Virus record (IMG/VR): IMGVR_UViG_2531839468_000024 | Direction: 5' to 3' (one strand) | Origin: a virus | Taxonomy: Duplodnaviria; Heunggongvirae; Uroviricota; Caudoviricetes | DNA: 12,209 bases | Shown: positions 1 to 12,209 of the stretch, one piece after another | How the letters are laid out: each line of letters begins with the position of its first letter | Position numbering within the stretch: position 1 is the first letter of the stretch | Notes under the pieces: generated by a model | Told to the model about the DNA's origin: nothing | Database searches by the model: none | Seen by the model: only the letters and a program-made list of their open reading frames with translations | Made by a program: the position numbers and the translations under genes

Positions 1-219
1 TGTTAATCCTACAATACCAAATAATGATAATACACCAATGACACTGACCGCGCCAAAGTATTTAAAGAAAATAGTTAATGATTCAACACTTATACCTTTC
101 CAATTTAAATAGCTTCTATAAGTATACAATTGCACAAAACACATGATAAAGAATAGGGGAAGGTATGACACTATAAATAGCGAAACTCTAGCACCTAAAT
201 GTAGTTTATTTACTCTCAT
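1..219 (-). CDS. Partial ORF (N-terminal fragment, continues past window start) encoding a strongly hydrophobic peptide; possible membrane protein
   Basis: Minus-strand frame open from ATG (reverse complement of 217-219) to position 1 with no stop; translation MRVNKLHLGARVSLFIVSYLPLFFIMCFVQLYTYRSYLNWKGISVESLTIFFKYFGAVSVIGVLSLFGIVGLT is hydrophobic; region is AT-rich. Not in the ORF track because it is unterminated in the window. Confidence 0.2.
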   Translation of the reverse strand, partial: MRVNKLHLGARVSLFIVSYLPLFFIMCFVQLYTYRSYLNWKGISVESLTIFFKYFGAVSVIGVLSLFGIVGLT

Positions 220-427
220 AACTACCCCACAGCCTACACGTCTAGTATTTTATGTTATTTCGAATAATTATGCATCAGATTACCATCCTACAATTGTGCA
301 TAAAACGAGCATTTTGCTGATTTTTCTGCGGATGCCTGAGACAGACAACCTCAAGCACCCGCAGCAATTTTACTTAACTCCCGCTACCTCGCCAATATGA
401 AATCAATAAGAAAGGTGCTCCATAAAA

Positions 428-1114
428 TCACTCCTTCTCTTCTTTATCGTAGTGGAGTTGACCAATTTTGATAAGAGGGCGTCCCTGAGATTTGCGGTGT
501 AGATTGGTATCGCGCAGAGAATACACACAGCCACAATATTCCTGCTGATAGAATTTTTCGCGCTTGCTGATTTCAATCATGCGGGACGAGCCGCCCTGCT
601 TGCGCCAGTTATAATCCCAGTACACCATGCCCGGATAATGCGCGACGGCTCGCCGCCCACAGTCGTTAACCTGCTGCATATTTTTCCAGCGTGAAATGCC
701 CAGTGAACTGCTGATCACACTGAAACCATTTTCAGCAGCGTACAGCGCTGTCCGCTCAAAACGCATGTCAAAACACATGGTACAACGGATCCCCCTCTCG
801 GGCTCCCATTCCATTCCTTTGGCACGTTCAAACCAGTTGTCTGTGTCGTAATCAGCATCAATAAATGGCACGCCGTGTTGTTCAGCAAAGCGAATATTCT
901 CATCCTTACGAATTAAATACTCTTTCTGAGGATGAATGTTCGGGTTGTAGAAAAAGATGGTATAGTCGATTCCCGAGGCCTGAAGCGCCTCCATCACTTC
1001 ACCGGAACATGGAGCACAGCAAGAGTGCAGTAGTAGTTTGTTTGCCCCGTTTGGGAGCTCCAATTTAGGCCGTTTGAAATCAGCAATAGTCATAAATATT
1101 TTTATTGGGGTCAT
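428..1114 (-). CDS. queH: DUF208 / QueH-like epoxyqueuosine reductase (Fe-S enzyme of queuosine tRNA modification)
   Basis: 228-aa ORF with [11 protein letters not shown] motif near the N-terminus plus later cysteines ([14 protein letters not shown]), as I recall for the QueH/DUF208 family. No clear Shine-Dalgarno for either candidate ATG (1114 or 1093). Confidence 0.55.
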
Positions 1115-1290
1115 GAAAATAGCACAGAGTGTAGCATCAGGGCTATCGGGAATAGATGTCTAAATCTGGTAATATCTGCTTTTGACGCAAAGCAGACAAC
1201 CACGCTAGCTCAATCCTGTGCCGTGAAAATGTCAATTCACATCTGAACTAATGCTCTTTAATCTAGTTACGTCTATAAATAACGAAAATT

Positions 1291-1689
1291 TCACTGATAA
1301 AATGCCAGTATGCGCTGCATAACTTCGCTCTTCCGGCACTCACAGCAAATTATGTTTTGGTGCCTGTCATAACGACGTATTTCTCCGTCAGGTAATGACC
1401 AGATAAGGTCCGGATCAACCACAGATGTTTTCTTCACCTTTGCCCTCGAGAGTTTTTTGCGGGCGTTTTGCCAGTCCTTACGAGCCTGTTCAGACGGGAA
1501 TAACCCGTAGCCAGAGTTATATACATCACCACTGGCAACCAGCTCTCTGGCGAGAACGCTCATCAGATATCTTGTCGCACCTGTCTTGGCTTCCAGTTGC
1601 CGTAACGTCTCGCGCCCACTCCGGCGTACTAGCTCAACAACCTGCCCCTTGATTTTTTCCCGCTCTTCTTGTGTAAAAACTTTTGCCAC
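1291..1689 (-). CDS. Hypothetical 132-aa protein downstream of the O-like replication gene
   Basis: GTG start preceded by a strong SD (AAGGGGGAC, reverse complement of 1692-1700); 40 bp downstream of the O-like stop, same strand. No family recognised. Confidence 0.5.
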   Translation of the reverse strand: MAKVFTQEEREKIKGQVVELVRRSGRETLRQLEAKTGATRYLMSVLARELVASGDVYNSGYGLFPSEQARKDWQNARKKLSRAKVKKTSVVDPDLIWSLPDGEIRRYDRHQNIICCECRKSEVMQRILAFYQ

Positions 1690-1729
1690 AAGTCCCCCTT
1701 AAAATTACCTCATGACCTGAAATCAAAAC

Positions 1730-2695
1730 TTATCCTCTGAAACCAGGCGGAATTTCTGTATCCGGTTCAGAAATATGATTAACACAACGCTGTACAGGTG
1801 AACGCCCCAGGCGGATGACCAGTTCGTCCCATTTTTCGCGGAGCTTTGACGGGCTCATGATGTTTTTTACCCAGAATGGATCCCGCTGTACCCGACCAAA
1901 CATTTCACAAATTTGTCTGTGGCTTCTGCCATCCAGCATCCGCATTGTGCGCACATCATTGGCCCAGACAGTCCAGTTAGGCTCTTTTGGTCGCATGATC
2001 TCGCCATCATCACTGGCGGCCTGTTCGTAGAGACCCACGATCCGCCCCCATATCCACTGCGCACACGCCAGATCCTCCTGGCTACCCCACTGGCGTTTTT
2101 TCGCACTAAACACAACTGCGCCAGGGTGCCGGATTAAAAAATCCTGTTCAGCCGTCTGCGGGTCCGGTTGCGAAGCTTCCGGACGAAAAGTGTTTTTATT
2201 CTCTGTAGTAATCTCTGTTGTATTCTCTGTAGGATCATCGGGCCATTTTGACCCGATGACATTGGGTCGTTTTGAACCAATGGAGCGTTTCATTTTGACC
2301 TCTTCCATCGTGTCATTTTGACCTGATGGAGCGGCGCATTTTGAACCGATGGATTCGCTCAATTTGCCATCATCTAAAAGCTCGCTCCCATAGTTAATCG
2401 TGTAGAAATTGGTCATATCGCGCTTTGATTTATTGAGCTTTTCACAACGCAAAAGCCCCAGCGTTTTCAGACTTGCAAACGCGCGCTTTAACGTTGACTC
2501 TGACCAGAATGGGAACTGTTCCAGCCATTGTTCCGTTGTGTTGTAAATCCAGCGAACACCATCACATTCCATGCCGGAATTGGTATCTCTCAACCAGTAA
2601 TGCAACTGCTGCAACACAATGGCTTCATTTAAGCCAATCTTCATCGCAAGCTGTGTGTTTATAACCAGTGGGCGTTCAGCAAAAAGAAGGCTCAT
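1730..2695 (-). CDS. Lambdoid replication initiator (O-like) with internal origin
   Basis: ORF track gives 1730-2749 (TTG start); I prefer the ATG at 2693-2695 (MSLLFAERPLVINTQLAMKIGLNEAIVLQQLHYWL...), giving a 321-aa product. The N-terminal region resembles replication-initiator DNA-binding domains; the iteron array lies inside the gene as in lambda O. Confidence 0.6.
   Translation of the reverse strand: MSLLFAERPLVINTQLAMKIGLNEAIVLQQLHYWLRDTNSGMECDGVRWIYNTTEQWLEQFPFWSESTLKRAFASLKTLGLLRCEKLNKSKRDMTNFYTINYGSELLDDGKLSESIGSKCAAPSGQNDTMEEVKMKRSIGSKRPNVIGSKWPDDPTENTTEITTENKNTFRPEASQPDPQTAEQDFLIRHPGAVVFSAKKRQWGSQEDLACAQWIWGRIVGLYEQAASDDGEIMRPKEPNWTVWANDVRTMRMLDGRSHRQICEMFGRVQRDPFWVKNIMSPSKLREKWDELVIRLGRSPVQRCVNHISEPDTEIPPGFRG
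2186..2233. repeat. AT-rich tract with three 11-12-bp direct repeats (ATTCTCTGTAG / AATCTCTGTTG / ATTCTCTGTAG) next to the iterons
   Basis: Repeats at 2198-2208, 2210-2220, 2222-2232. The tract lies downstream of the iterons in the coding direction of the O-like gene, matching the iteron-then-AT-rich layout of lambda ori. Confidence 0.5.
2244..2375. repeat. Iteron array: 5 good copies plus 1 degenerate copy of CATTTTGA(C/A)C-(N)-GATGG at 23-bp periodicity; putative replication origin
   Basis: Copies start at 2244, 2268, 2291, 2314, 2337 and (degenerate) 2360; read directly from the sequence. They encode a repetitive (S/V)IGSK linker in the O-like protein. Confidence 0.7.
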
Positions 2696-3197
2696 AATTC
2701 CATCCAGCTTTTTGTTGGTATTGCTGTCGATACGCAAGTTTGAAAGCAATTGCTTTTTCTATAAGTTCGTCAGTTTCACGATCCACTACGGCAGGATCAG
2801 CAAAAAGCAGTCCGGACTCCACCACATCGCCATATTCTTTGTTTAACCCGGCGATCATGTACGTGATGCTTTTTCCGTCACTAATTTCACGATGCAACCT
2901 GAAATCATTAATCCGGATAGCCTCCATAATTGCAGGCACTAGCGCCGTGAACTTTTCACGCTTATCCCTGGTGTCGATAGCCTTCCAGCGTTCGAATATC
3001 TTCACTCGATTAACGCCAAGCGCTCGCTGATCAACCGCGCCACCTTCATCTGTGACACGCTGAACATCGATGTTCGGGCGCTCTTTCAAAGCCCAGAATG
3101 CTTCAGTGATTAATATCGTCGCCTGCTCCTGTGTCATTCCTGGTCGACATATCCAGGCATCCAGAGCCTCACGAGCCTGTTCAGGAGTGATTTTCAT
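2676..3197 (-). CDS. Hypothetical 173-aa early protein at the CII position (possibly YdaT-like)
   Basis: ATG start at 3195-3197; overlaps the Cro-like gene stop by 17 nt and the O-like start by 20 nt, so it sits in a tightly packed rightward early operon. Family assignment is by position only. Confidence 0.45.
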   Translation of the reverse strand: MKITPEQAREALDAWICRPGMTQEQATILITEAFWALKERPNIDVQRVTDEGGAVDQRALGVNRVKIFERWKAIDTRDKREKFTALVPAIMEAIRINDFRLHREISDGKSITYMIAGLNKEYGDVVESGLLFADPAVVDRETDELIEKAIAFKLAYRQQYQQKAGWNYEPSFC

Positions 3198-3408
3198 TGT
3201 TCAACCGCCCCGCCCGCTTCGTCTTACGATATTCGTCATAAACCTTGGGATCATACAGAAGCTCGCCGCCAGATGCCTCCTGTAGACGCATCGCGCGACC
3301 TTCAGGAACCAGCTCTTGCCATTGAGAAACAGCAGATGGGTCAACGCCAGCAGCTTTCGCTACTTTGGCTTTCGTACCGTAAAAATTAATTACGTCTGAT
3401 TTAAACAT
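3181..3408 (-). CDS. dicC: Cro-like small DNA-binding protein (DicC/YdaS family)
   Basis: ORF track start at 3435 is TTG; the internal ATG at 3406-3408 has a strong SD (GGAGGT) and gives a 75-aa product, MFKSDVINFYGTKAKVAKAAGVDPSAVSQWQ..., with an HTH-like segment. Divergent from the repressor. Confidence 0.65.
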   Translation of the reverse strand: MFKSDVINFYGTKAKVAKAAGVDPSAVSQWQELVPEGRAMRLQEASGGELLYDPKVYDEYRKTKRAGRLNNENHS

Positions 3409-3485
3409 CGCACCTCCAATATTGAGTTTTCTCAATGCTAATCACTCAAGGAATCTCAAGTCAAGGGTTATTAAGATATCTAAAT
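3409..3485. promoter_or_regulatory. Divergent promoter/operator region between the Cro-like and repressor genes
   Basis: Inverted repeat ATTGAG-N4-CTCAAT at 3421-3436; further CTCAAG half-sites at 3445-3450 and 3455-3460. The core TTGAGTTTTCTCA recurs downstream of the repressor gene. Confidence 0.55.
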
Positions 3486-3893
3486 ATGAACGAGAAAACT
3501 TTAGGTCAACGCATTAGAGAAAGACGTAAGCAGGTAGGCTTAAGTCAAAACGGTTTAAGCAAAGCTGCTGGCGTATCTGGCTCATCAATTTCATTATGGG
3601 AAAGTGACCATACAGCCCCGCGCGGGCAAAATTTGCATCGCCTCGCCGAGGTATTGCAGTGTTCACCAACCTGGATACTGTTTGGCGACGAGGACAAAAC
3701 ACCAGCTCCCCCTGTTTCACTCGATAGTGCCTTAGACTTATCGGAAGATGAGTTAGAGATGCTGCGTTTGTATCGCGCACTTCCTAAATCAGAGCAACAA
3801 GCACAACTCAGCGAACTCCGCGCCCGCGTTGAGAATTTTAATCGCCTGTTCACCGAGCTATTAGAGGCTCGCAAACGCAACAAGCATCAATAA
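3486..3893 (+). CDS. dicA: DicA-like HTH (XRE-family) prophage repressor
   Basis: ATG at 3486 gives 135 aa. HTH near the N-terminus (QRIRERRKQVGLSQNGLSKAAGVSGSSISLWE) and a conserved VLQCSPTWILFGDEDK segment that I recall from Qin DicA. Weak or absent SD, consistent with a cI-like leaderless or weakly initiated message. Confidence 0.75.
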   Translation: MNEKTLGQRIRERRKQVGLSQNGLSKAAGVSGSSISLWESDHTAPRGQNLHRLAEVLQCSPTWILFGDEDKTPAPPVSLDSALDLSEDELEMLRLYRALPKSEQQAQLSELRARVENFNRLFTELLEARKRNKHQ

Positions 3894-3954
3894 TCATCCC
3901 TTCACAAAATTTTAAAGCCTTACATTTCAATGTATTGGCTTTATCTTGCGCCAA

Positions 3955-4016
3955 TGCTTGAGTTTTCTCATCAAAAAGCCTTGACGAAAAATAATGAGAA
4001 AACTAAATTACCTCCA
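3955..4016 (+). promoter_or_regulatory. Putative repressor-controlled promoter of the early-left (dicB-type) operon with two operator-like sites
   Basis: TTGAGTTTTCTCA at 3958-3970, identical to 3422-3434; inverted variant TGAGAAAACTAA at 3995-4006; candidate -35 TTGACG (3981-3986) and -10 TAAATT (4004-4009) with a 17-bp spacer. Confidence 0.5.
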
Positions 4017-4085
4017 TCAACACACCGCACGGTGTTCTCAGCAAACAGTTCCGCTACCCCGGCGTTAAGGGGAAATGAGGTCAGC

Positions 4086-4238
4086 ATGGATACTATCGAT
4101 CTTGGCAACAGCGAATCTCTGGTATGTGGCGTGTTCCCCAACCAGGACGGTACGTTCACCGCGATGACATATACCAAAAGCAAAACGTTTAAAACCGAAT
4201 CTGGCGCGCGTTGCTGGTTAGCCAGAAACACTGACTGA
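4086..4238 (+). CDS. ydfA: YdfA/YdaF-like (DUF1391) small protein
   Basis: The 102-aa ORF in the track is probably over-extended; the ATG at 4086 with SD GAGG (4077-4080) gives a 50-aa product, MDTIDLGNSESLVCGVFPNQDGTFTAMTYTKSKTFKTESGARCWLARNTD, matching the size and sequence character I recall for Qin YdfA / Rac YdaF. Confidence 0.6.
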   Translation: MDTIDLGNSESLVCGVFPNQDGTFTAMTYTKSKTFKTESGARCWLARNTD

Positions 4239-4249
4239 TGAGGCTGACG

Positions 4250-4615
4250 ATGGAATTTAAAGATTTACCGTCTGATGTACAGAAAACAGCAGCTCATACA
4301 TTGCATTCTGTGCTGCGAGAAATCGGGAAAGATATTGCAAGCGAGCCAGCAAAAGATCTGGCCCGGAAAATCAAGACCGCTTTCGTTGAGCTTTATAATG
4401 TTGGCACTGACTCTGAAACTGTCGAGACCAAGACCGTAAGTTCACCAATATTCTCACTTGAGCCAGGCGTATTATCAGGTGAAATATGCACCGAGATTTC
4501 CAGCGAACTGCTTCCGGTAATACGAGAAGCAATTTGCCGTCGCGGTTTGGATGGAAGTTACGATCATGACGTCCTGCAAGTTCTCAGGACAATGGTGACT
4601 TCACTGGGGATTTGA
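4250..4615 (+). CDS. Hypothetical 121-aa protein (position of ydfB/ydfC in Qin)
   Basis: ATG at 4250 with SD GAGG (4240-4243); the ORF track begins at 4238, overlapping the previous stop. No family recognised. Confidence 0.5.
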   Translation: MEFKDLPSDVQKTAAHTLHSVLREIGKDIASEPAKDLARKIKTAFVELYNVGTDSETVETKTVSSPIFSLEPGVLSGEICTEISSELLPVIREAICRRGLDGSYDHDVLQVLRTMVTSLGI

Positions 4616-4696
4616 TCCCTGCGTCCTCTAACCCGAGTTGTCAGGTTGACCATACGCTTAAGTGACAACCCCGCTGCAACGCCCTCTGTTATCAAT

Positions 4697-4754
4697 TTTC
4701 TGGTGACGTTTGGCGGTATCAGTTTTACTCCGTGACTGCTCTGCCGCCGTTTTT
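4697..4754 (+). ncRNA. dicF: DicF-like small regulatory RNA (ftsZ-targeting sRNA of dicB operons)
   Basis: TTTCTGGTGACGTTTGGCGGTATCAGTTTTACTCCGTGACTGCTCTGCCGCCG followed by a T-run (4750-4754); this matches DicF as I recall it, and it sits in a roughly 300-bp non-coding gap just upstream of the DicB-like ORF. No covariance-model search was possible. Confidence 0.65.
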
Positions 4755-4923
4755 AAAGTGAATTTTGTGATGCGGTGAATGCGGCTAAGCGCACGCGGAA
4801 CAGTTAAAACCAAAAACAGTGTTATGGGTAGATTCTCTGTATCCGGCGTTAATTGTTAACTGGTTAACGTCACCTGGAGGCACCAGGCACTGCATCACAA
4901 AATTCATTGTTGAGGACGCGATA

Positions 4924-5112
4924 ATGAAAACGTTATTACCAAACGTTAATACGTCTGAAGGTTGTTTTGAAATTGGTGTCACTATCAGTAACCCTGTATT
5001 TACTGAAGATGCCATTAACAAGAGAAAACAAGAACGGGAGCTATTAAATAAAATATGCATTGTTTCAATGCTGGCTCGTTTACGTCTGATGCCAAAAGGA
5101 TGTGCACAATGA
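4924..5112 (+). CDS. dicB: DicB-like cell-division inhibitor (62 aa)
   Basis: ATG at 4924 with SD GAGGA (4911-4915); 62-aa product MKTLLPNVNTSEGCFEIGVTISNPVF...; size, position after the DicF-like RNA and sequence match my recollection of Qin DicB. The 97-aa ORF in the track is an upstream over-extension. Confidence 0.75.
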   Translation: MKTLLPNVNTSEGCFEIGVTISNPVFTEDAINKRKQERELLNKICIVSMLARLRLMPKGCAQ

Positions 5113-5300
5113 ATTCAGCATTTGCGCTTGTTCTGACAGTTTTTCTTGTTTCCGGAGAGCCAGTTGATATTGCAGTCAGTGTTCACAGGACAATGCAGGA
5201 GTGTATGACTGCAGCAACCGAACAGAAAATTCCCGGTAACTGTTACCCGGTCGATAAAGTTATTCACCAGGATAATATCGAAATCCCGGCAAGTCTTTAA
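5109..5300 (+). CDS. ydfD: YdfD-like small membrane (lysis-type) protein (63 aa)
   Basis: ATG at 5109 overlaps the dicB stop (ATGA coupling, 5109-5112); N-terminal hydrophobic segment SAFALVLTVFLVSG; 63 aa as for Qin YdfD. Confidence 0.65.
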   Translation: MNSAFALVLTVFLVSGEPVDIAVSVHRTMQECMTAATEQKIPGNCYPVDKVIHQDNIEIPASL

Positions 5301-5393
5301 AACAGTTCCGTAATAAATATCCGGTTTCATTCTTATATGCCAGCAATGGCAGGGATTTGTTCATCCTTAAATCTGTCATGAGGTTAAAACAAA

Positions 5394-7864
5394 ATGAGTA
5401 AAGTCTTTATTTGCGCCGCTATTCCTGACGAACTGGCAACAAGGGAAGAAGGCGCTGTGGCTGTAGCCACAGCCATTGAAGCTGGCGACGAACGCCGTGC
5501 TCGAGCAAAATTTCACTGGCAGTTCCTGGAACATTATCCGGCTGCTCAGGACTGCGCTTATAAATTTATTGTCTGCGAGGATAAACCTGGCATACCCCGC
5601 CCTGCCCTCGATTCATGGGATGCTGAATATATGCAGGAAAACCGCTGGGATGAGGAGTCTGCTTCTTTTGTCCCGGTTGAGACTGAATCCGATCCGATGA
5701 ACGTCACTTTTGACAAGCTGGCCCCTGAAGTACAGAACGCTGTCATGGTTAAGTTCGACACATGTGAAAACATCACCGTTGATATGGTTATTAGCGCACA
5801 GGAATTGTTGCAGGAAGACATGGCAACATTCGACGGACATATCGTTGAAGCGTTGATGAAAATGCCAGAAGTTAACGCCATGTATCCGGAGCTTAAGTTG
5901 CACGCCATTGGGTGGGTTAAGCATAAATGTATTCCTGGTGCTAAATGGCCCGAAATTCAGGCAGAGATGCGCATCTGGAAAAAACGTCGCGAAGGTGAAC
6001 GCAAGGAAACCGGAAAATACACGTCTGTTGTTGATCTCGCCCGCGCCAGAGCCAATCAACAGTACACTGAAAATTCAACAGGAAAAATCAGCCCGGTCAT
6101 TGCTGCCATTCATCGCGAATACAAGCAGACATGGAAAACACTGGATGACGAACTGGCCTACGCTCTCTGGCCTGGTGATGTGGATGCCGGAAACATTGAC
6201 GGCAGCATCCATCGCTGGGCAAAAAAGAAGTTATCGACAACGACCGCGAAGACTGGAAGCGTATCTCGGCATCAATGCGCAAACAGCCTGATGCCCTTCG
6301 CTACGACCGCCAGACTATTTTTGGCCTTGTCCGTGAGCGTCCGATCGACATTCACAAAGATCCCATAGCACTGAACAAATATATCTGCGAATACCTGACG
6401 ACAAAGGGCGTGTTTGAGAGTGAAGAAACAGACCTGGGCACTGTTGATGTTCTCCAGTCATCAGAAACACAAACTGATGCAGTGGAAACTGAGGTATCTG
6501 ATATCCCAAAAAATGAAACCGCGCCGGAAGCTGAACCATCTGTAGAGCGTGAGGGGCCGTTCTATTTCCTCTTCGCAGATAAGGACGGAGAAAAATACGG
6601 TCGCGCAAACAAACTTTCTGGTCTGGATAAGGCACTGGCTGCTGGCGCCACTGAAATCACAAAAGAAGAATATTTTGCCCGAAAAAATGGCACATACACG
6701 GGCTTACCGCAAAATGTAGATACCGCTGAAGATTCAGAACAACCAGAGCCGATAAAAGTTACCGCTGACGAAGTAAACAAAATTATGCAGGCAGCCAATA
6801 TCAGCCAGCCTGACGCCGATAAGTTGCTTGCTGCATCACGTGGTGAATTTGTTGAAGGGATTAGTGACCCGAATGATCCGAAATGGGTTAAGGGGATCCA
6901 GACCCGCGATTCTGTGAACCAGAACCAGCATGAATCGGAACGGAACTACCAAAAAGCGGAACAAAACAGCACAAATGCGTTACAAAACGAGCCAGAAACG
7001 AAACAGCCTGAACCAGTGGCGCAACAGGAAGTGGAAAAAGTCTGCACCGCCTGCGGTCAGACCGGCGGCGGCAACTGCCCTGATTGTGGCGCGGTGATGG
7101 GCGACGCAACATACCAAGAAACATTCGATGAAGAGTATCAGGTTGAAGTTCAGGAAGATGATCCGGAGGAAATGGAAGGCGCTGAACATCCACACAAGGA
7201 GAACACTGGCGGCAATCAGCATCACAATAGCGATAATGAAACTGGCGAGACGGCAGATCACTCAATTAAGGTGAACGGTCATCACGAAATCACATCCACC
7301 AGCAGGACGTGTGACCATCTAATGATCGACCTTGAAACCATGGGAAAAAATCCTGATGCCCCGATCATCTCAATAGGTGCAATATTTTTCGATCCGCAAA
7401 CCGGAGATATGGGACCGGAATTTAGTAAGACTATCGATCTGGAAACTGCTGGCGGAGTCATTGATCGGGACACCATTAAATGGTGGCTTAAGCAATCACG
7501 CGAAGCGCAATCTGCCATTATGACCGATGAAATCCCGTTAGATGATGCACTGTTACAATTGCGGGAATTTATCGACGAAAACTCCGGTGAATTTTTTGTT
7601 CAGGTTTGGGGAAATGGAGCCAACTTCGACAACACGATTTTGCGCCGTTCATACGAACGGCAGGGGATCCCCTGCCCGTGGCGTTACTACAACGATCGCG
7701 ATGTACGCACAATCGTTGAGCTGGGGAAAGCCATAGACTTCGATGCCAGAACGGCTATTCCATTCGAAGGTGAGCGCCATAATGCACTTGATGACGCCCG
7801 TTACCAGGCAAAATACGTTTCAGTTATCTGGCAAAAACTGATCCCGAGTCAGGCTGATTCTTAA
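5394..7864 (+). pseudogene. YdfE-like large early protein (about 820 aa if fused): unknown N-terminal region, acidic linker, C4 zinc-ribbon-like motif and C-terminal DEDDh (DnaQ-like) 3'-5' exonuclease domain; reading frame broken near 6221-6227
   Basis: Two overlapping ORFs (5394-6368 and 6275-7864); the second frame is open from 6200, and one added base in the A6 run (6221-6226) joins them. Exo motifs: DLET (about 7327-7338), NGANFDNTIL, HNALDDARYQAKY. CTACGQTGGGNCPDCG at about 7045-7092. Confidence 0.65.
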
Positions 7865-7875
7865 TGTTCAACTGT

Positions 7876-7907
7876 CGCCGGTTGTGACTGGTATTCTGCA
7901 ACCGGCG
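7876..7907 (+). other. Stem-loop (9-bp stem CGCCGGTTG / CAACCGGCG, 14-nt loop) just after the exonuclease stop
   Basis: Perfect inverted repeat 7876-7884 / 7899-7907; no following T-tract, so not a canonical intrinsic terminator. Confidence 0.3.
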
Positions 7908-7936
7908 CTCGTCTGATGTAAGAGATAAAGAAATCG

Positions 7937-8065
7937 ATGAGCGAAGTAATCATGATTGTCTCTCCCGGCAAATGGGTATCCGAAGAGCAGTTAATTGCGC
8001 TGAAAGGAATAAAAAAAGGTACGTTAAAAAAGGCCCGGGAAAAATCGTTTATGGAAGGAAGGGAA
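7937..8065 (+). pseudogene. Excisionase-like small gene, 5' fragment (interrupted by IS66-family insertion)
   Basis: ORF reads MSEVIMIVSPGKWVSEEQLIALKGIKKGTLKKAREKSFMEGRE up to the IS boundary at 8066; the same frame resumes after the IS (10773 onward) to a stop at 10893-10895. Confidence 0.5.
8058..8065. repeat. Target-site duplication, left copy (GAAGGGAA)
   Basis: Identical 8-mer directly flanks both IS ends (8058-8065 and 10765-10772). Confidence 0.85.
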
Positions 8066-8148
8066 GTAACCGGCTCATTTAAACCGTCTGGTCTGTTTCC
8101 TCCGGCTCTACAAAAATAATGTCCATCATTTTTAATGGACACTATCGT

Positions 8149-8331
8149 ATGAAACACCGGACCTGGATCACTGAAGCTTTACGTCTTCACTTTGAAGAAC
8201 ATTTACCCCGGGTTGTGGCCGGGCGTCGCCTGAGTGTACCAAAATCAACAGTTTGTAGTATGTTCGTGCGCTTTCGGAGAGCTGGCCTTTCGGTGGCCTT
8301 TGCCCGCAGGCATGTCGGAGCAGGAACTTGA
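8149..8331 (+). CDS. IS-internal upstream ORF of unknown role (HTH-like basic peptide)
   Basis: ATG at 8149 (the track begins at 8119); MKHRTWITEALRLHFEEHLPRVVAGRRLSVPKSTV...; its stop overlaps an ATG at 8331 (TGATG). May be an accessory ORF or chance ORF within the IS left arm. Confidence 0.25.
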   Translation: MKHRTWITEALRLHFEEHLPRVVAGRRLSVPKSTVCSMFVRFRRAGLSVAFARRHVGAGT

Positions 8332-8461
8332 TGCCTGCCTATACGGACAATTTTTCCACGGTACCAGTCGTACGTCCTGAAAGCACCGTTATATCCGAAG
8401 CCCCCGAGGTAAAAAACGTCCCCGGCGGCCCAACTTCCCTTATGAGTTTAAAATCGCCTTA

Positions 8462-8797
8462 GTGGAGCAGTCACTACAGCCCGGAGCCTGTGTGGCGCAG
8501 ATCGCCCGGGAAAACGGAATCAACGATAACCTGCTCTTCAACTGGCGCCATCAATACCGGAAAGGTGGCCTGCTGCCTTCCGGAGAAAATATGCCGGCAC
8601 TGCTTCCCGTGACGTTAACGCCGGAGCCGGATAATAAAATCCCGGCCCCCGCACAGGAACCAGAGCAGATAAATACACCGTCCGACAGTCTGTGTTGTGA
8701 GCTGGTTCTGCCGGCCGGAACTCTCAGGCTTAAAGGTAAACTGACGCCGGCGTTATTACAGACACTTATCCGCGAAATAAAAGGGAGCAGCCACTGA
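8462..8797 (+). CDS. tnpA: IS66-family TnpA (orf1); conserved coding appears to extend upstream of the first in-frame start
   Basis: The first standard start in frame is GTG at 8462, but the same frame is open from 8381 and encodes KKRPRRPNFPYEFKIALVEQSLQPGACVAQIARENGINDNLLFNWRHQYRKG, matching the RRR-x-S-x-EFK...LF-WR-Q pattern I recall for IS66 TnpA. Confidence 0.6.
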   Translation: MEQSLQPGACVAQIARENGINDNLLFNWRHQYRKGGLLPSGENMPALLPVTLTPEPDNKIPAPAQEPEQINTPSDSLCCELVLPAGTLRLKGKLTPALLQTLIREIKGSSH

Positions 8798-9144
8798 TGA
8801 TATCTCTCCCTGCAGGTTCGCGTATCTGGCTGGTTGCAGGTATCACCGATATGCGAAATGGCTTTAACGGCCTGGCATCAAAAGTTCAGAACGTCCTGAA
8901 GGATGACCCGTTCTCCGGACACCTGTTCATCTTCCGCGGACGCCGGGGTGACCAGATAAAAGTGTTGTGGGCTGACAGTGACGGACTGTGCCTCTTCACC
9001 AAACGCCTGGAGCGGGGCCGCTTCGTCTGGCCAGTCACCCGTGACGGCAAGGTGCACCTTACTCCGGCTCAGTTATCCATGCTTCTTGAAGGTATCAACT
9101 GGAAGCACCCGAAACGAACGGAACGCGCTGGAATCCGCATATAA
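8797..9144 (+). CDS. tnpB: IS66-family TnpB (orf2)
   Basis: 115 aa, MISLPAGSRIWLVAGITDMRNGFNGLA...GHLFIFRGRRGDQIKVLWADSDGLCLFTKRLERGRF, the characteristic IS66 orf2 sequence; start overlaps the tnpA stop. Confidence 0.85.
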   Translation: MISLPAGSRIWLVAGITDMRNGFNGLASKVQNVLKDDPFSGHLFIFRGRRGDQIKVLWADSDGLCLFTKRLERGRFVWPVTRDGKVHLTPAQLSMLLEGINWKHPKRTERAGIRI

Positions 9145-9163
9145 CCCGTTGTAAAGTGAGGAT

Positions 9164-10734
9164 ATGGACACCTCACTTGCTCATGAGAACGCCCGCCTGC
9201 GGGCACTGTTGCAGACGCAACAGGACACCATCCGCCAGATGGCTGAATACAACCGCCTGCTCTCACAGCGGGTGGCGGCTTATGCTTCCGAAATCAACCG
9301 GCTGAAGGCGCTGGTTGCGAAACTGCAACGTATGCAGTTCGGTAAAAGCTCAGAAAAACTTCGTGCAAAAACCGAACGGCAGATACAGGAAGCACAGGAG
9401 CGAATCAGCGCACTTCAGGAAGAAATGGCGGAAACGCTGGGTGAGCAATATGACCCGGTACTGCCATCCGCCCTGCGCCAGTCTTCAGCCCGTAAACCGT
9501 TACCGGCCTCACTTCCCCGTGAAACCCGGGTTATCCGGCCGGAAGAGGAATGCTGTCCTGCCTGTGGTGGTGAACTCAGTTCTCTGGGATGTGATGTGTC
9601 AGAGCAACTGGAGCTTATCAGCAGCGCCTTTAAGGTTATCGAAACACAACGTCCGAAACAGGCCTGTTGCCGGTGCGACCATATCGTGCAGGCACCAGTA
9701 CCTTCAAAACCCATTGCACGCAGTTATGCCGGAGCGGGGCTTCTGGCCCATGTTGTCACCGGGAAATATGCAGACCATCTGCCGTTATACCGCCAGTCAG
9801 AAATATACCGTCGTCAGGGAGTGGAGCTGAGCCGTGCCACACTGGGGCGCTGGACAGGTGCTGTTGCTGAACTGCTGGAGCCGCTGTATGACGTCCTGCG
9901 CCAGTATGTGCTGATGCCCGGTAAAGTCCATGCTGATGATATCCCCGTCCCGGTCCAGGAGCCGGGCAGCGGTAAAACCCGGACAGCCCGGCTGTGGGTC
10001 TACGTCCGTGATGACCGTAACGCCGGTTCACAGATGCCCCCGGCGGTCTGGTTCGCGTACAGTCCGGACCGGAAAGGTATCCATCCACAAAATCACCTGG
10101 CCGGTTACAGCGGTGTGCTTCAGGCCGATGCTTACGGTGGTTACCGGGCGTTATACGAATCCGGCAGAATAACGGAAGCCGCGTGTATGGCTCATGCCCG
10201 GAGAAAATCCACGATGTGCATGCAAGAGCGCCCACCTACATCACCACGGAAGCCCTGCAGCGTATCGGTGAACTGTATGCCATCGAGGCAGAGGTCCGGG
10301 GCTGTTCAGCAGAACAGCGTCTGGCGGCAAGAAAAGCCAGAGCCGCGCCACTGATGCAGTCACTGTATGACTGGATACAGCAACAGATGAAAACACTGTC
10401 GCGTCACTCAGATACGGCAAAAGCGTTCGCATACCTGCTGAAACAGTGGGATGCACTGAACGTGTACTGCAGTAATGGCTGGGTGGAAATCGACAACAAC
10501 ATCGCAGAGAACGCCTTACGGGGAGTGGCCGTAGGCCGGAAAAACTGGATGTTCGCGGGTTCCGACAGCGGTGGTGAACATGCGGCGGTGTTGTACTCGC
10601 TGATCGGCACATGCCGTCTGAACAATGTGGAGCCAGAAAAGTGGCTGCGTTACGTCATTGAACATATCCAGGACTGGCCGGCAAACCGGGTACGCGATCT
10701 GTTGCCCTGGAAAGTTGATCTGAGCTCTCAGTAA
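9164..10734 (+). pseudogene. tnpC: IS66-family TnpC transposase, frameshifted (two ORFs, 9164-10354 and 10183-10734)
   Basis: N-terminal coiled-coil/leucine-zipper-like region, CPACGG zinc-finger motif, then ...[11 protein letters not shown] in one frame continuing as IHDVHA... in the next; one added base near 10208 would restore a single reading frame of about 520 aa. Confidence 0.8.
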
Positions 10735-10764
10735 ATATCAATACGGTTCTGACGAGTCGCTTAC

Positions 10765-10772
10765 GAAGGGAA
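10765..10772. repeat. Target-site duplication, right copy (GAAGGGAA)
   Basis: Identical to 8058-8065; directly abuts the IS right end. Confidence 0.85.
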
Positions 10773-10895
10773 TATAAGCATGTCGCTCATGACGGTATGC
10801 CATGGGATAACAGTCCATGCTTTTACAACCTGGAAGAAATTGATCGCTGGATTGAGCGCCAGGCATCAGCGAGACCAAGACGTCATCTTACTTGA
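10765..10895 (+). pseudogene. Excisionase-like small gene, 3' fragment
   Basis: Frame open across the IS right boundary: ...YKHVAHDGMPWDNSPCFYNLEEIDRWIERQASARPRRHLT stop. The C-terminal EEIDRWIE resembles the W-x-EID-x-W tail of AlpA/Xis-type proteins. Joining the fragments with a single copy of the duplication gives an 83-aa protein. Confidence 0.5.
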
Positions 10896-10929
10896 CTAAA
10901 AGCCACACTAACTAATGAGAGAAGTTGAA

Positions 10930-12209
10930 ATGAAATATCCGACAGGCGTGGAAAACCATGGAGGGAAATTACGTATCTGGTTTGTTTATAAAGGCGTAAG
11001 AGTCAGGGAAAATCTGGGGGTTCCTGACACAGCAAAAAACAGGCACGTTGCAGGTGAACTACGCTCCTCTGTTTGTTACGCAATAAAAACTGGTGTTTTC
11101 GACTATGCAAAACAGTTTCCCTCCTCACGCAATCTGGAAAAATTTGGTGAGGCCCGACAAGATTTAACCATAAAAGAACTGGCTGAAAAATTTCTGGCAC
11201 TGAAAGAAACTGAAGTCGCCAAAACATCACTCAACACATACCGTGCCGTCATCAAAAATATCCTGAGCATAATCGGTGAAAAAAATCTTGCCTCATCGAT
11301 TAATAAAGAAAAATTACTGGAGGTTCGTAAAGAGCTACTGACTGGATACCAGATCCCCAAAAGTAACTATATTGTTACACAACCAGGGAGATCGGCTGTA
11401 ACTGTAAATAATTACATGACAAATCTTAACGCCGTGTTCCAGTTTGGTGTTGATAACGGTTACCTGCCAGATAATCCGTTTAAGGGGATCTCGCCATTAA
11501 AGGAATCAAGAACCATTCCGGATCCTCTTTCGCGGGAGGAATTTATCCGTCTTATCGATGCGTGCAGAAATCAGCAAGCAAAAAATATATGGTGTGTTTC
11601 TGTTTATACTGGCGTTCGCCCTGGTGAGCTGTGTGCACTTGGATGGGAGGACATAGATCTGAAAAATGGAACAATGATGATCAGGAGAAATTTAGCAAAA
11701 GACCGTTTCACGGTACCAAAAACACAGGCGGGAACCAATCGGGTCATTCATCTTATTAAGCCAGCAATCGACGCTCTCCGGAGTCAGATGACATTAACGA
11801 GACTGAGCAAAGAGCATATCATTGATGTTCACCTCAGAGAGTATGGCAGAACAGAAAAACAAAAATGCACCTTTGTTTTTCAACCTGAAGTGTCAGCGAG
11901 AGTAAAAATTATGGTGACCATTTTACCGTTGACTCAATAAGGCAGATGTGGGACGCAGCGATAAAACGTGCCGGACTCCGCCATCGAAAATCATATCAGT
12001 CGAGACATACTTATGCCTGCTGGTCGCTGACAGCTGGTGCTAACCCGGCATTTATAGCAAACCAGATGGGCCATGCAGATGCGCAAATGGTATTTCAGGT
12101 ATACGGAAAATGGATGTCTGAAAACAATAATGCACAGGTAGCTTTGTTAAATACACAGTTAAGCGAGTTTGCCCCAACCATGCCCCATAACGAAGCAATG
12201 AAAAATTAA
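10930..12209 (+). pseudogene. int: Lambda-family tyrosine integrase, frame broken at an A5 run (11904-11908)
   Basis: Two ORFs (10915-11940 and 11946-12209); the downstream frame is open from 11889 and carries the catalytic HxxR (SRHTYA), second His (GHAD) and Tyr (VYGKW) region; the N-terminus PTGVE...LRIWFVYKGVRVRE is typical of lambdoid integrases. Confidence 0.8.

Follow-up and report, generated by a model that had tools for sequence, protein, structure and literature searches.

The viral record IMGVR_UViG_2531839468_000024 (Caudoviricetes), a stretch of 12,209 nucleotides (nt) that we analysed over its full length and refer to as the window, contains the dicBF operon. This PL-type, early-left operon belongs to an Escherichia coli lambdoid prophage of the Qin type that is integrated next to rspB, and we hold this assignment with great confidence. 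Nothing in the data contradicts the identification of the module, in which the gene for the small RNA (sRNA) DicF is followed by a structured leader and by the small genes dicB and ydfD. The identity and the integrity of every part, as well as their arrangement, were observed in the window itself. The core of the module comprises the following features:

4633–4696, plus strand: conserved stretch of 64 nt, the same except for position 4636 in K-12, phage Tritos, strain 43905 (Ec43905) and strain A1
4697–4749, plus strand: DicF sRNA, with its terminator stem at 4712–4748 and a T-run at 4750–4754 (Rfam RF00039, identity to K-12, folding)
4750–4916, plus strand: structured leader, closing stem 4750–4777/4888–4916, inner hairpins 4781–4796, 4845–4871 and 4873–4887, variable middle
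4924–5112, plus strand: dicB, 62 amino acids (aa), Shine-Dalgarno sequence GAGGA at 4912–4916 (PF05358, NF049927)
5109–5300, plus strand: ydfD, 63 aa, ribosome-binding sequence AAGGA at 5095–5099, ATGA overlap with dicB (Pfam DUF1482)

Scanning of the whole window with Rfam at gathering thresholds returned a single match, which is to DicF (RF00039) at positions 4698–4749 on the plus strand. With 72.5 bits (E = 9e-15) it clearly exceeds the gathering score of 48 for this family and covers model positions 1–52 of 52. Positions 4697–4749 correspond to the 53-nt dicF annotation of K-12 and agree with it in 52 of 53 bases, the sole difference being a change of the last base from C to G. The original prediction, which had placed DicF at exactly these positions, is thereby borne out. 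As to the terminal base, C is the commonest state (~79) among 94 collected copies and G is found in 13, which makes the G in the window an ordinary minority variant and rules out our first impression, formed from five sequences, that G is the common state. In terms of gene order, DicF lies 3' of ydfA-type genes and 5' of dicB, within a gap of 308 bp (4616–4923) that indeed contains spurious open reading frames (ORFs) only. Folding of 4697–4760 yields the stem 4712–4748 followed by UUUUU, in agreement with an interrupted GC-rich terminator stem plus U-run, and the T-run described previously at 4750–4754 is present. The hairpin was not listed by a generic terminator scan because the stem is interrupted, and the fold of 4697–4760 is by itself unremarkable (z = -1.6). 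We base the identification as DicF on the covariance-model score and on the bases shared with the K-12 RNA, which has been defined by experiment and is nearly identical, not on the stability of the fold.

DicF represses translation of ftsZ (PMC10448788, PMC5069750, PMC8835842), for which it uses its 3' part, while the 5' part serves other targets (PMC5069750). All bases through which K-12 DicF pairs with its targets (PMC5069750) are unaltered in the window. These data also bear on a reading in which the hairpin 4712–4754 serves the early-left operon as an intrinsic terminator and nothing else, without acting in trans as an RNA here. A stem with a T-run located between genes is what such a reading expects, and kil-type relatives carry another terminator hairpin in the same position that stays below the DicF threshold. 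However, all 52 bases of the validated K-12 sRNA are unaltered, including the single-stranded 5' region and the target-pairing loop, and a plain terminator would need no conservation 5' of its stem, which renders this explanation extremely improbable.

The two ORFs downstream of DicF had been described as DicB-like and YdfD-like, and comparison with the respective proteins substantiates both names. The 62-aa product matches the DicB models of Pfam (PF05358, 136.8 bits; cut-off 27) and NCBIfam (NF049927, 132.8 bits; cut-off 100) over residues 1–62 of 62, and is the same as K-12 DicB in 62 of 62 residues, with one synonymous base change in the gene. DicB acts through MinC and also inhibits ManYZ-dependent entry of phage DNA (PMC10448788); because its sequence is identical to that of K-12, the window DicB very likely causes the same MinC-dependent block of the Z ring. 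The 63-aa product matches Pfam DUF1482 (PF07358) with 92 bits (cut-off 25) and no NCBIfam model, is named 'lysis protein YdfD' by RefSeq in matching genomes, and shares 61 of 63 residues with K-12 YdfD, the changes being V6A and G62S. Its N-terminus (MNSAFALVLTVFLVSG), as read from the translation, is hydrophobic as stated before. YdfD targets IspG, which it binds and inhibits, and causes dividing cells to lyse; DicB counteracts this effect (PMC8835842). The functions that the original prediction had named for DicF, DicB and YdfD agree with the literature (PMC10448788, PMC5069750, PMC8835842). The ATGA overlap of dicB and ydfD, likewise noted earlier, is located at 5109–5112 and recurs in all 74 copies (74/74) of the collected loci; it would be consistent with a putative coupled translation of the two genes, as the original prediction had it. 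PADLOC returned no defence-system match for either DicB or YdfD.

Upstream of DicF, position 4633, located 64 nt 5' of the sRNA, marks a sharp onset of homology to K-12, Tritos and strain 43905 and hence a mosaic breakpoint. A leader of ~130 nt that is common to K-12, Tritos and 43905 on the 5' side of this point is missing from the window and from E. coli A1. The window and A1 carry an ORF of 125 aa instead of ydfB/ydfC, which in the window ends at 4615; this ORF is joined to dicF in 397 of 4,049 E. coli genomes matching the query. Within the conserved stretch 4633–4696, folding indicates a small hairpin in which 4637–4643 pairs with 4662–4668. RNase E generates the 5' end of DicF (PMC10448788, PMC9438474), and by analogy this stretch may provide the context for the cut. 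We also noticed that GCGTCCTC (4621–4628), which is specific for this variant, is complementary over 8 nt to the Shine-Dalgarno region of dicB (GAGGACGC, 4912–4919). This match is treated as chance, because we estimate that about one inverted repeat of 8 nt is expected in 331 nt and variation at these sites is not available.

The spacer between DicF and dicB comprises 169 nt and its ends are complementary to each other: the arms 4759–4777 and 4888–4906 match at 95% over 19 nt. Folding of 4750–4923 produced a closing stem of 28 pairs around three hairpins with a free energy of -64.6 kcal/mol (z = -5.8), and no shuffled sequence was as stable. When diverged copies from phage records were aligned, two near-invariant blocks emerged (~4756–4808 and 4843–4908), whereas the middle of the spacer and the flanking genes vary. 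In an alignment of nine sequences, 91% of the cells fall into standard pairs as compared to 37–43% with the pairing partners slid, the first figure being inflated since the structure was derived from one of the aligned sequences. Nine pairs show double-sided changes in the same set, and RNAalifold on its own recovers the same closing stem and hairpins. Both conservation and pairing of the leader are thus directly visible in the alignment. In Rfam, the leader reaches 32.5 bits with STnc100 (RF02076; E = 1e-5; model positions 21–154 of 206), which is below the gathering score of 47. It appears to be a relative of STnc100 and is not filed as a member.

The leader also precedes other genes. It ends ~20 nt ahead of kil/kilR in Rac-SA53, Shigella phage 75/02 Stx, PhiR5_2 and pPE4, and ~40 nt ahead of terB in phage P7. 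Scanning of IMG/VR with a 30-nt invariant core retrieved at least 120 contigs, in which the next ORF is the 62-aa DicB in about 85 or more and a 77-aa ORF in about 12 or more. Judged by its first residues, the latter looks like the gene annotated as Kil in Rac/Stx-type phages. The 1994 study by Faubladier and Bouché probably deals with dicF-related sequences in Rac and elsewhere, and may already describe relatives of the leader.

In the kil-type phages, the position of DicF is occupied by a different stem with T-run (GGCGGACATC...GATGTCCGCC) that scores below the Rfam gathering score for DicF. It may represent a distinct terminator-derived small RNA and was located in three of the collected loci:

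L006, ~1215–1262: kil-type stem and T-run
L009, ~1165–1212: kil-type stem and T-run
L011, ~1140–1180: kil-type stem and T-run

Another candidate interaction concerned DicF and the leader directly: GGTGACGTT in the single-stranded 5' region of DicF (4702–4710) could pair perfectly over 9 nt with AACGTCACC in a conserved block of the leader (4866–4874). DicF position 12 varies in 12 copies and the leader core is the same there, which has to be read with the caveat that the scan demanded an exact core. Because of this variation, and because the leader block is equally kept in phages without DicF, the pairing is not supported. A complementarity of this length is also close to chance expectation for 331 nt.

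The closing stem may also account for a second form of DicF. According to PMC9438474, which cites Faubladier et al. 1990, RNase III processes the full-length RNA and thereby creates an alternative 3' end of DicF, giving a species of 72 nt. Counted from 4697, 72 nt lead to position 4768, halfway along the 5' arm of the leader. Since this end falls mid-arm, and in view of the length of the stem, RNase III probably cuts the closing stem to yield the 72-nt form reported for K-12.

Control of the operon is predicted to originate from the DicA/DicC switch, which together with the first genes of the operon is organized as follows:

3181–3408, minus strand: dicC, Cro-like regulator whose N-terminal half differs from K-12 (NF007282, Pfam P22_Cro)
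3422–3434, no strand assigned: predicted operator-like near-palindrome TTGAGTTTTCTCA, OR-like, in the dicC-dicA gap
3486–3893, plus strand: dicA, CI-like repressor, heteroimmune allele (NF007257, Pfam HTH_3)
3958–3970 and 3995–4007: predicted operator-like copies, the latter on the other strand with one mismatch, flanking or overlapping the promoter-like site
3981–4009, plus strand: predicted PL-like promoter, TTGACG-17-TAAATT, from a consensus scan
4086–4238, plus strand: ydfA homologue, first gene of the operon (Pfam DUF1391, 90.8 bits; phrog_751)
4238–4615, plus strand: 125-aa ORF (121 aa in RefSeq) of unknown function replacing ydfB/ydfC of K-12 (phrog_33007, 275 bits; no match in Pfam or PADLOC and no DNA match to K-12)

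The coordinates of dicC and ydfA were transferred from the RefSeq annotation of strain A1. DicA and DicC are recognized by their NCBIfam models with 238.8 bits (NF007257; cut-off 101) and 164.7 bits (NF007282; cut-off 130), respectively. Their C-terminal halves are close to the K-12 proteins, whereas the N-terminal halves, which contain the helix-turn-helix DNA-binding domains, diverge; at the DNA level, positions 3310–4014 have no megablast match to K-12. The claim of an intact DicA/DicC switch is upheld as far as the reading frames are concerned, with the amendment that the allele is heteroimmune and its DNA-binding halves are unlike those of K-12. The 13-bp sequence TTGAGTTTTCTCA occurs three times in the window when up to two mismatches are allowed, as compared to 0.48 expected copies. 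K-12 has a different repeat (TGTTAGTCAT..CTAA), which is present in the dicC-dicA gap and in two further copies 5' of ydfA, located -133 and -96 relative to its start codon. The copies in the window are found at the equivalent positions, -128 and -91 from the ydfA start. DicA is reported to repress dicBp, the equivalent of lambda PL, with three operators per region (PMC10448788), as compared to one operator-like repeat between dicC and dicA and two at the promoter found here. The promoter and the operators are putative. Altogether, the region looks like an ordinary heteroimmune allele, that is, the same switch architecture with swapped recognition sequence and helices.

These parts suggest the following sequence of events, in which molecular functions and RNase steps are carried over from K-12 experiments in the cited papers. 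DicA would repress the promoter just 3' of dicA, predicted at ~3981–4009. When repression lapses, a polycistronic RNA would extend through ydfA and the 125-aa ORF into dicF, and most transcripts would end at the DicF terminator (4712–4754). Cleavage by RNase E at 4696/4697 would then release the 53-nt Hfq-dependent DicF, whose 3' part would pair with the ribosome-binding site of ftsZ and block synthesis of FtsZ; xylR, pykA and manX would be repressed as well. RNA resulting from read-through would enter the structured leader of ~165 nt, whose closing stem of ~20–28 bp would probably be cut by RNase III, giving rise to the 72-nt form of DicF and to a dicB-ydfD mRNA whose 5' end would lie shortly before the Shine-Dalgarno sequence of dicB. 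DicB would recruit MinC to the septum, thereby blocking the Z ring, and inhibit ManYZ-dependent entry of phage DNA. Finally, YdfD, translated from the overlapping ATGA start, would inhibit IspG and lyse dividing cells, an activity that DicB would counteract. The operon may be expressed in the source strain.

Several points weigh against this interpretation. First, the promoter scan found 4 promoter-like sites as compared to 3.0 in shuffled sequence; the site at 3981–4009 was retained because operator-like repeats bracket it at positions equivalent to K-12. Second, the predicted duplex of whole DicF with ftsZ has -38.9 kcal/mol for the window and -38.5 kcal/mol for K-12, and 49 of 500 shuffled sequences pair at least as well. 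This test does not discriminate, for which reason we rely on the identity of the validated pairing bases. Third, the RNase III step is described differently in two sources, namely as a 5' cut yielding 190 nt (PMC10448788) and as a 3' cut yielding 72 nt (PMC9438474). For the 190-nt DicF species, the 5' end that depends on RNase III has been placed ~137 nt ahead of the mature sRNA (PMC10448788) and would map into the segment that is missing from the window; as the ~130-nt leader is absent, this RNase III step may not occur in the present variant. For the downstream stem, the assignment to RNase III is drawn from arithmetic and from stem length. Fourth, G62S of YdfD (position 5292, codon 62) falls into an otherwise invariant C-terminal ...IPAGL motif. 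The window protein ends with ...IPASL, every other listed 63-aa copy ends with ...IPAGL or ...IPAGF, and G62S is absent from the ~74 other collected copies. Removal or exchange of the last residue of YdfD weakens lysis in K-12 (PMC8835842), and G62S adjoins residues that are reported to be needed for full lysis activity.

Combining the observations on the leader, one may picture the 165-nt spacer as a structured 'toxic-gene leader' that is related to STnc100 and moves independently. Lambdoid and P1-like phages would set it directly ahead of different genes interfering with the host (dicB, kil/kilR, terB), with various terminator-type small RNAs preceding it, and it would gate translation or mRNA stability via RNase III. 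In the present variant, which misses the upstream leader of K-12, DicF would mature by means of its terminator and RNase E alone. We put this forward as a tentative idea that is rather doubtful in its entirety.

The genes on both sides of the module inform about the state of the prophage. To the left of the switch, genes with similarity to the replication gene O, to CII/YdaT and to Ren are intact. The right-hand side contains the following features:

5394–7864, plus strand: RecE-type exonuclease, split into two overlapping ORFs (Pfam Rv2179c-like, 227 bits)
7937–8065, plus strand: 5' part of xis, codons 1–43
8066–10764, plus strand: IS66-family insertion sequence (IS) element, ISCro1-like, 2,699 bp, with an 8-bp target duplication GAAGGGAA (8058–8065 and 10765–10772)
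10773–10895, plus strand: 3' part of xis
10930–12209, plus strand: integrase, homologue of intQ, frameshifted (alignment to A1, translation)

Positions 1–8065 and 10765–12209 of the window are 99.9% identical to E. coli A1, which allowed the lesions to be defined by direct comparison. In the exonuclease gene, a run of seven A residues in A1 is shortened to six (6216–6221, located at 6221), resulting in ORFs of 324 aa and 529 aa; this allele is present in 14 of 3,535 matching records. In the integrase gene, six A residues are reduced to five as compared to A1 (11899–11904, located at 11904), and none of 2,710 matching records shares this allele. Both frameshifts are situated in homopolymers, and for this reason they may represent either real decay or read errors. 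If the IS is removed along with one of the two duplicated 8-bp sequences, an excisionase of 83 aa is restored, as compared with xis of A1, where the IS is absent from this site. Strain 43905 carries the same IS, annotated as ISCro1 tnpA/tnpB/transposase, at another location 3' of xis, and the junction of IS and xis was found in one piece in no complete E. coli genome. Positions 11051–12209 are 99.4% identical to intQ of K-12, and the same integrase gene abuts rspB in A1 and 43905; rspB itself is located just outside the window. The original prediction had seen a more complete flanking context than in K-12. This is correct in that replication-type genes, a full-length exonuclease region, xis and int are present, and needs revision in that xis is split by the IS and exonuclease and integrase are frameshifted.

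Such lesions raise the question whether a decaying prophage merely carries the module along as silent cargo, with parts that are still recognizable and no longer expressed or selected in the strain. The IS66-family element in xis, the 1-nt frameshifts in exonuclease and integrase, and the private G62S exchange in a conserved motif of YdfD would be in line with this. However, DicF (52/53) and DicB (62/62) carry no damaging change, the frames of DicA and DicC and the operator-like repeats are intact, and the frameshifts in homopolymers may be read errors, the integrase allele being found in 0 of 2,710 records. Moreover, Qin of K-12 is equally defective, yet stationary-phase cells contain DicF made from it, and dicBp is turned on in part of the population (PMC10448788). 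We therefore consider silent cargo very unlikely and retain the assignment as a dicBF operon of a Qin-type prophage.

The opposite view, in which the module mainly serves a phage that can still be induced in taking over the host and imposes a transient lytic division block as lambda Kil does, rather than acting as a domesticated host regulator, draws on other observations. The same block is located in the PL-type operon of the isolated phages Tritos, HannyBb, PhiR42_1 and mEp460, the latter being named a functional relative (PMC10448788), and the O-like, CII/YdaT-like and Ren-like genes left of the switch are intact. On the other hand, excision is unlikely if the sequence is correct, given the split xis and the frameshifted int, and the window covers the left arm of the prophage only and not the late genes. 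On balance, a role mainly in host takeover appears unlikely to us, and the identification as an early-left operon of a Qin-type prophage is maintained.

Further observations concern the periphery. Positions 1–219 on the minus strand encode the first 73 residues of KwaA (PADLOC PDLC00212, 102.8 bits), and a KwaB-like gene comes next in related genomes; the prophage appears to carry a Kiwa anti-phage system, as judged from these matches. Positions 428–1114 on the minus strand contain a gene that RefSeq annotates in matching genomes as QueH-like (epoxyqueuosine reductase) and that belongs to phrog_3217, of unknown function in PHROGs; it lies between the Kiwa genes and a Ren-like/DUF977 gene. In Tritos (L005, 734–908), a hok/sok locus (Rfam sok, 111.7 bits) adjoins an annotated HokD toxin on the far side of the immunity region. 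This placement parallels relB-hokD in Qin of K-12, in an arm that is outside the window.

The module is already known as a textbook element that most E. coli genomes contain and that isolated phages carry as well, and the dicBF operon has been under study since the late 1980s. Of 5,426 complete genomes of E. coli, 3,772 match a block of 901 bp (4500–5400) at a coverage of at least 80%, often with more than one copy, and 4633–5300 is contained at full length in 8 phage records with 96–99% identity. The main use of the present results is annotation, in that the window can be assigned to the early-left arm of a prophage of the Qin type with heteroimmune DicA/DicC, and more complete than K-12 does not equal functional. 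The leader ahead of dicB, which also precedes kil in other phages, has a weak tie to a catalogued RNA family.

Comparison with known systems begins with the closest relatives. Strain A1 has the order KwaB-like, QueH, DUF977, O-like, YdaT-family, Cro/CI-type, DUF1391, dicB, ydfD, exonuclease, excisionase, integrase and rspB. Among isolated phages, Tritos (OV696610), HannyBb, PhiR42_1 and mEp460_ev081 contain 4633–5300 at full length with 96.9–99.3% identity. Tritos has an unbroken succession of CI, three small ORFs, DicF (which is annotated), DicB, YdfD, exonuclease VIII, excisionase and integrase, in the same synteny as the window; its exo, xis and int genes are intact and it possesses ydfB/ydfC of the K-12 type and the long upstream leader. 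Qin of K-12 MG1655 (dicF b1574, dicB b1575, ydfD b1576) agrees with the window in gene order between dicC and int, with int adjoining rspB, and also in the ATGA overlap and the dicF-dicB spacer. Megablast matches to K-12 are limited to 4633–6160 (99.35%), 11051–12209, part of dicC/ydfX, and ydfA. In K-12, the exonuclease gene contains IS2, intQ is truncated, and genes of the replication region that the window keeps have been lost; K-12 further differs in the DicA/DicC allele, the operator repeats, ydfB/ydfC in place of the 125-aa ORF, and the upstream leader of ~130 nt.

More distant likenesses are limited to individual elements. In the kil/kilR leaders of Rac-SA53, 75/02 Stx, PhiR5_2 and pPE4 as well as in the terB leader of P7, the spacer 4756–4908 is conserved to 77–84% with two near-invariant blocks. 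The kil-type leaders are likewise part of an early-left operon and located ahead of exonuclease VIII, but the next gene is Kil (TerB in P7) instead of DicB, and the upstream terminator hairpin is another one. STnc100 resembles the leader in its closing helix around inner hairpins and in the shared motifs GGUGAAU and CACC-GGAGGCACC-GGCACC. The PL operon of lambda compares by function only: it is a repressor-controlled early-left operon with a small division inhibitor 5' of recombination and integration genes. In addition, the RNase III-sensitive N leader of lambda contains a hairpin for RNase III that immediately precedes a Shine-Dalgarno sequence. In K-12, dicBp has been equated with PL, and DicA/DicC with CI/Cro (PMC10448788), a parallel that ends with the target, as lambda Kil hits FtsZ directly and not via MinC (PMC3961180).

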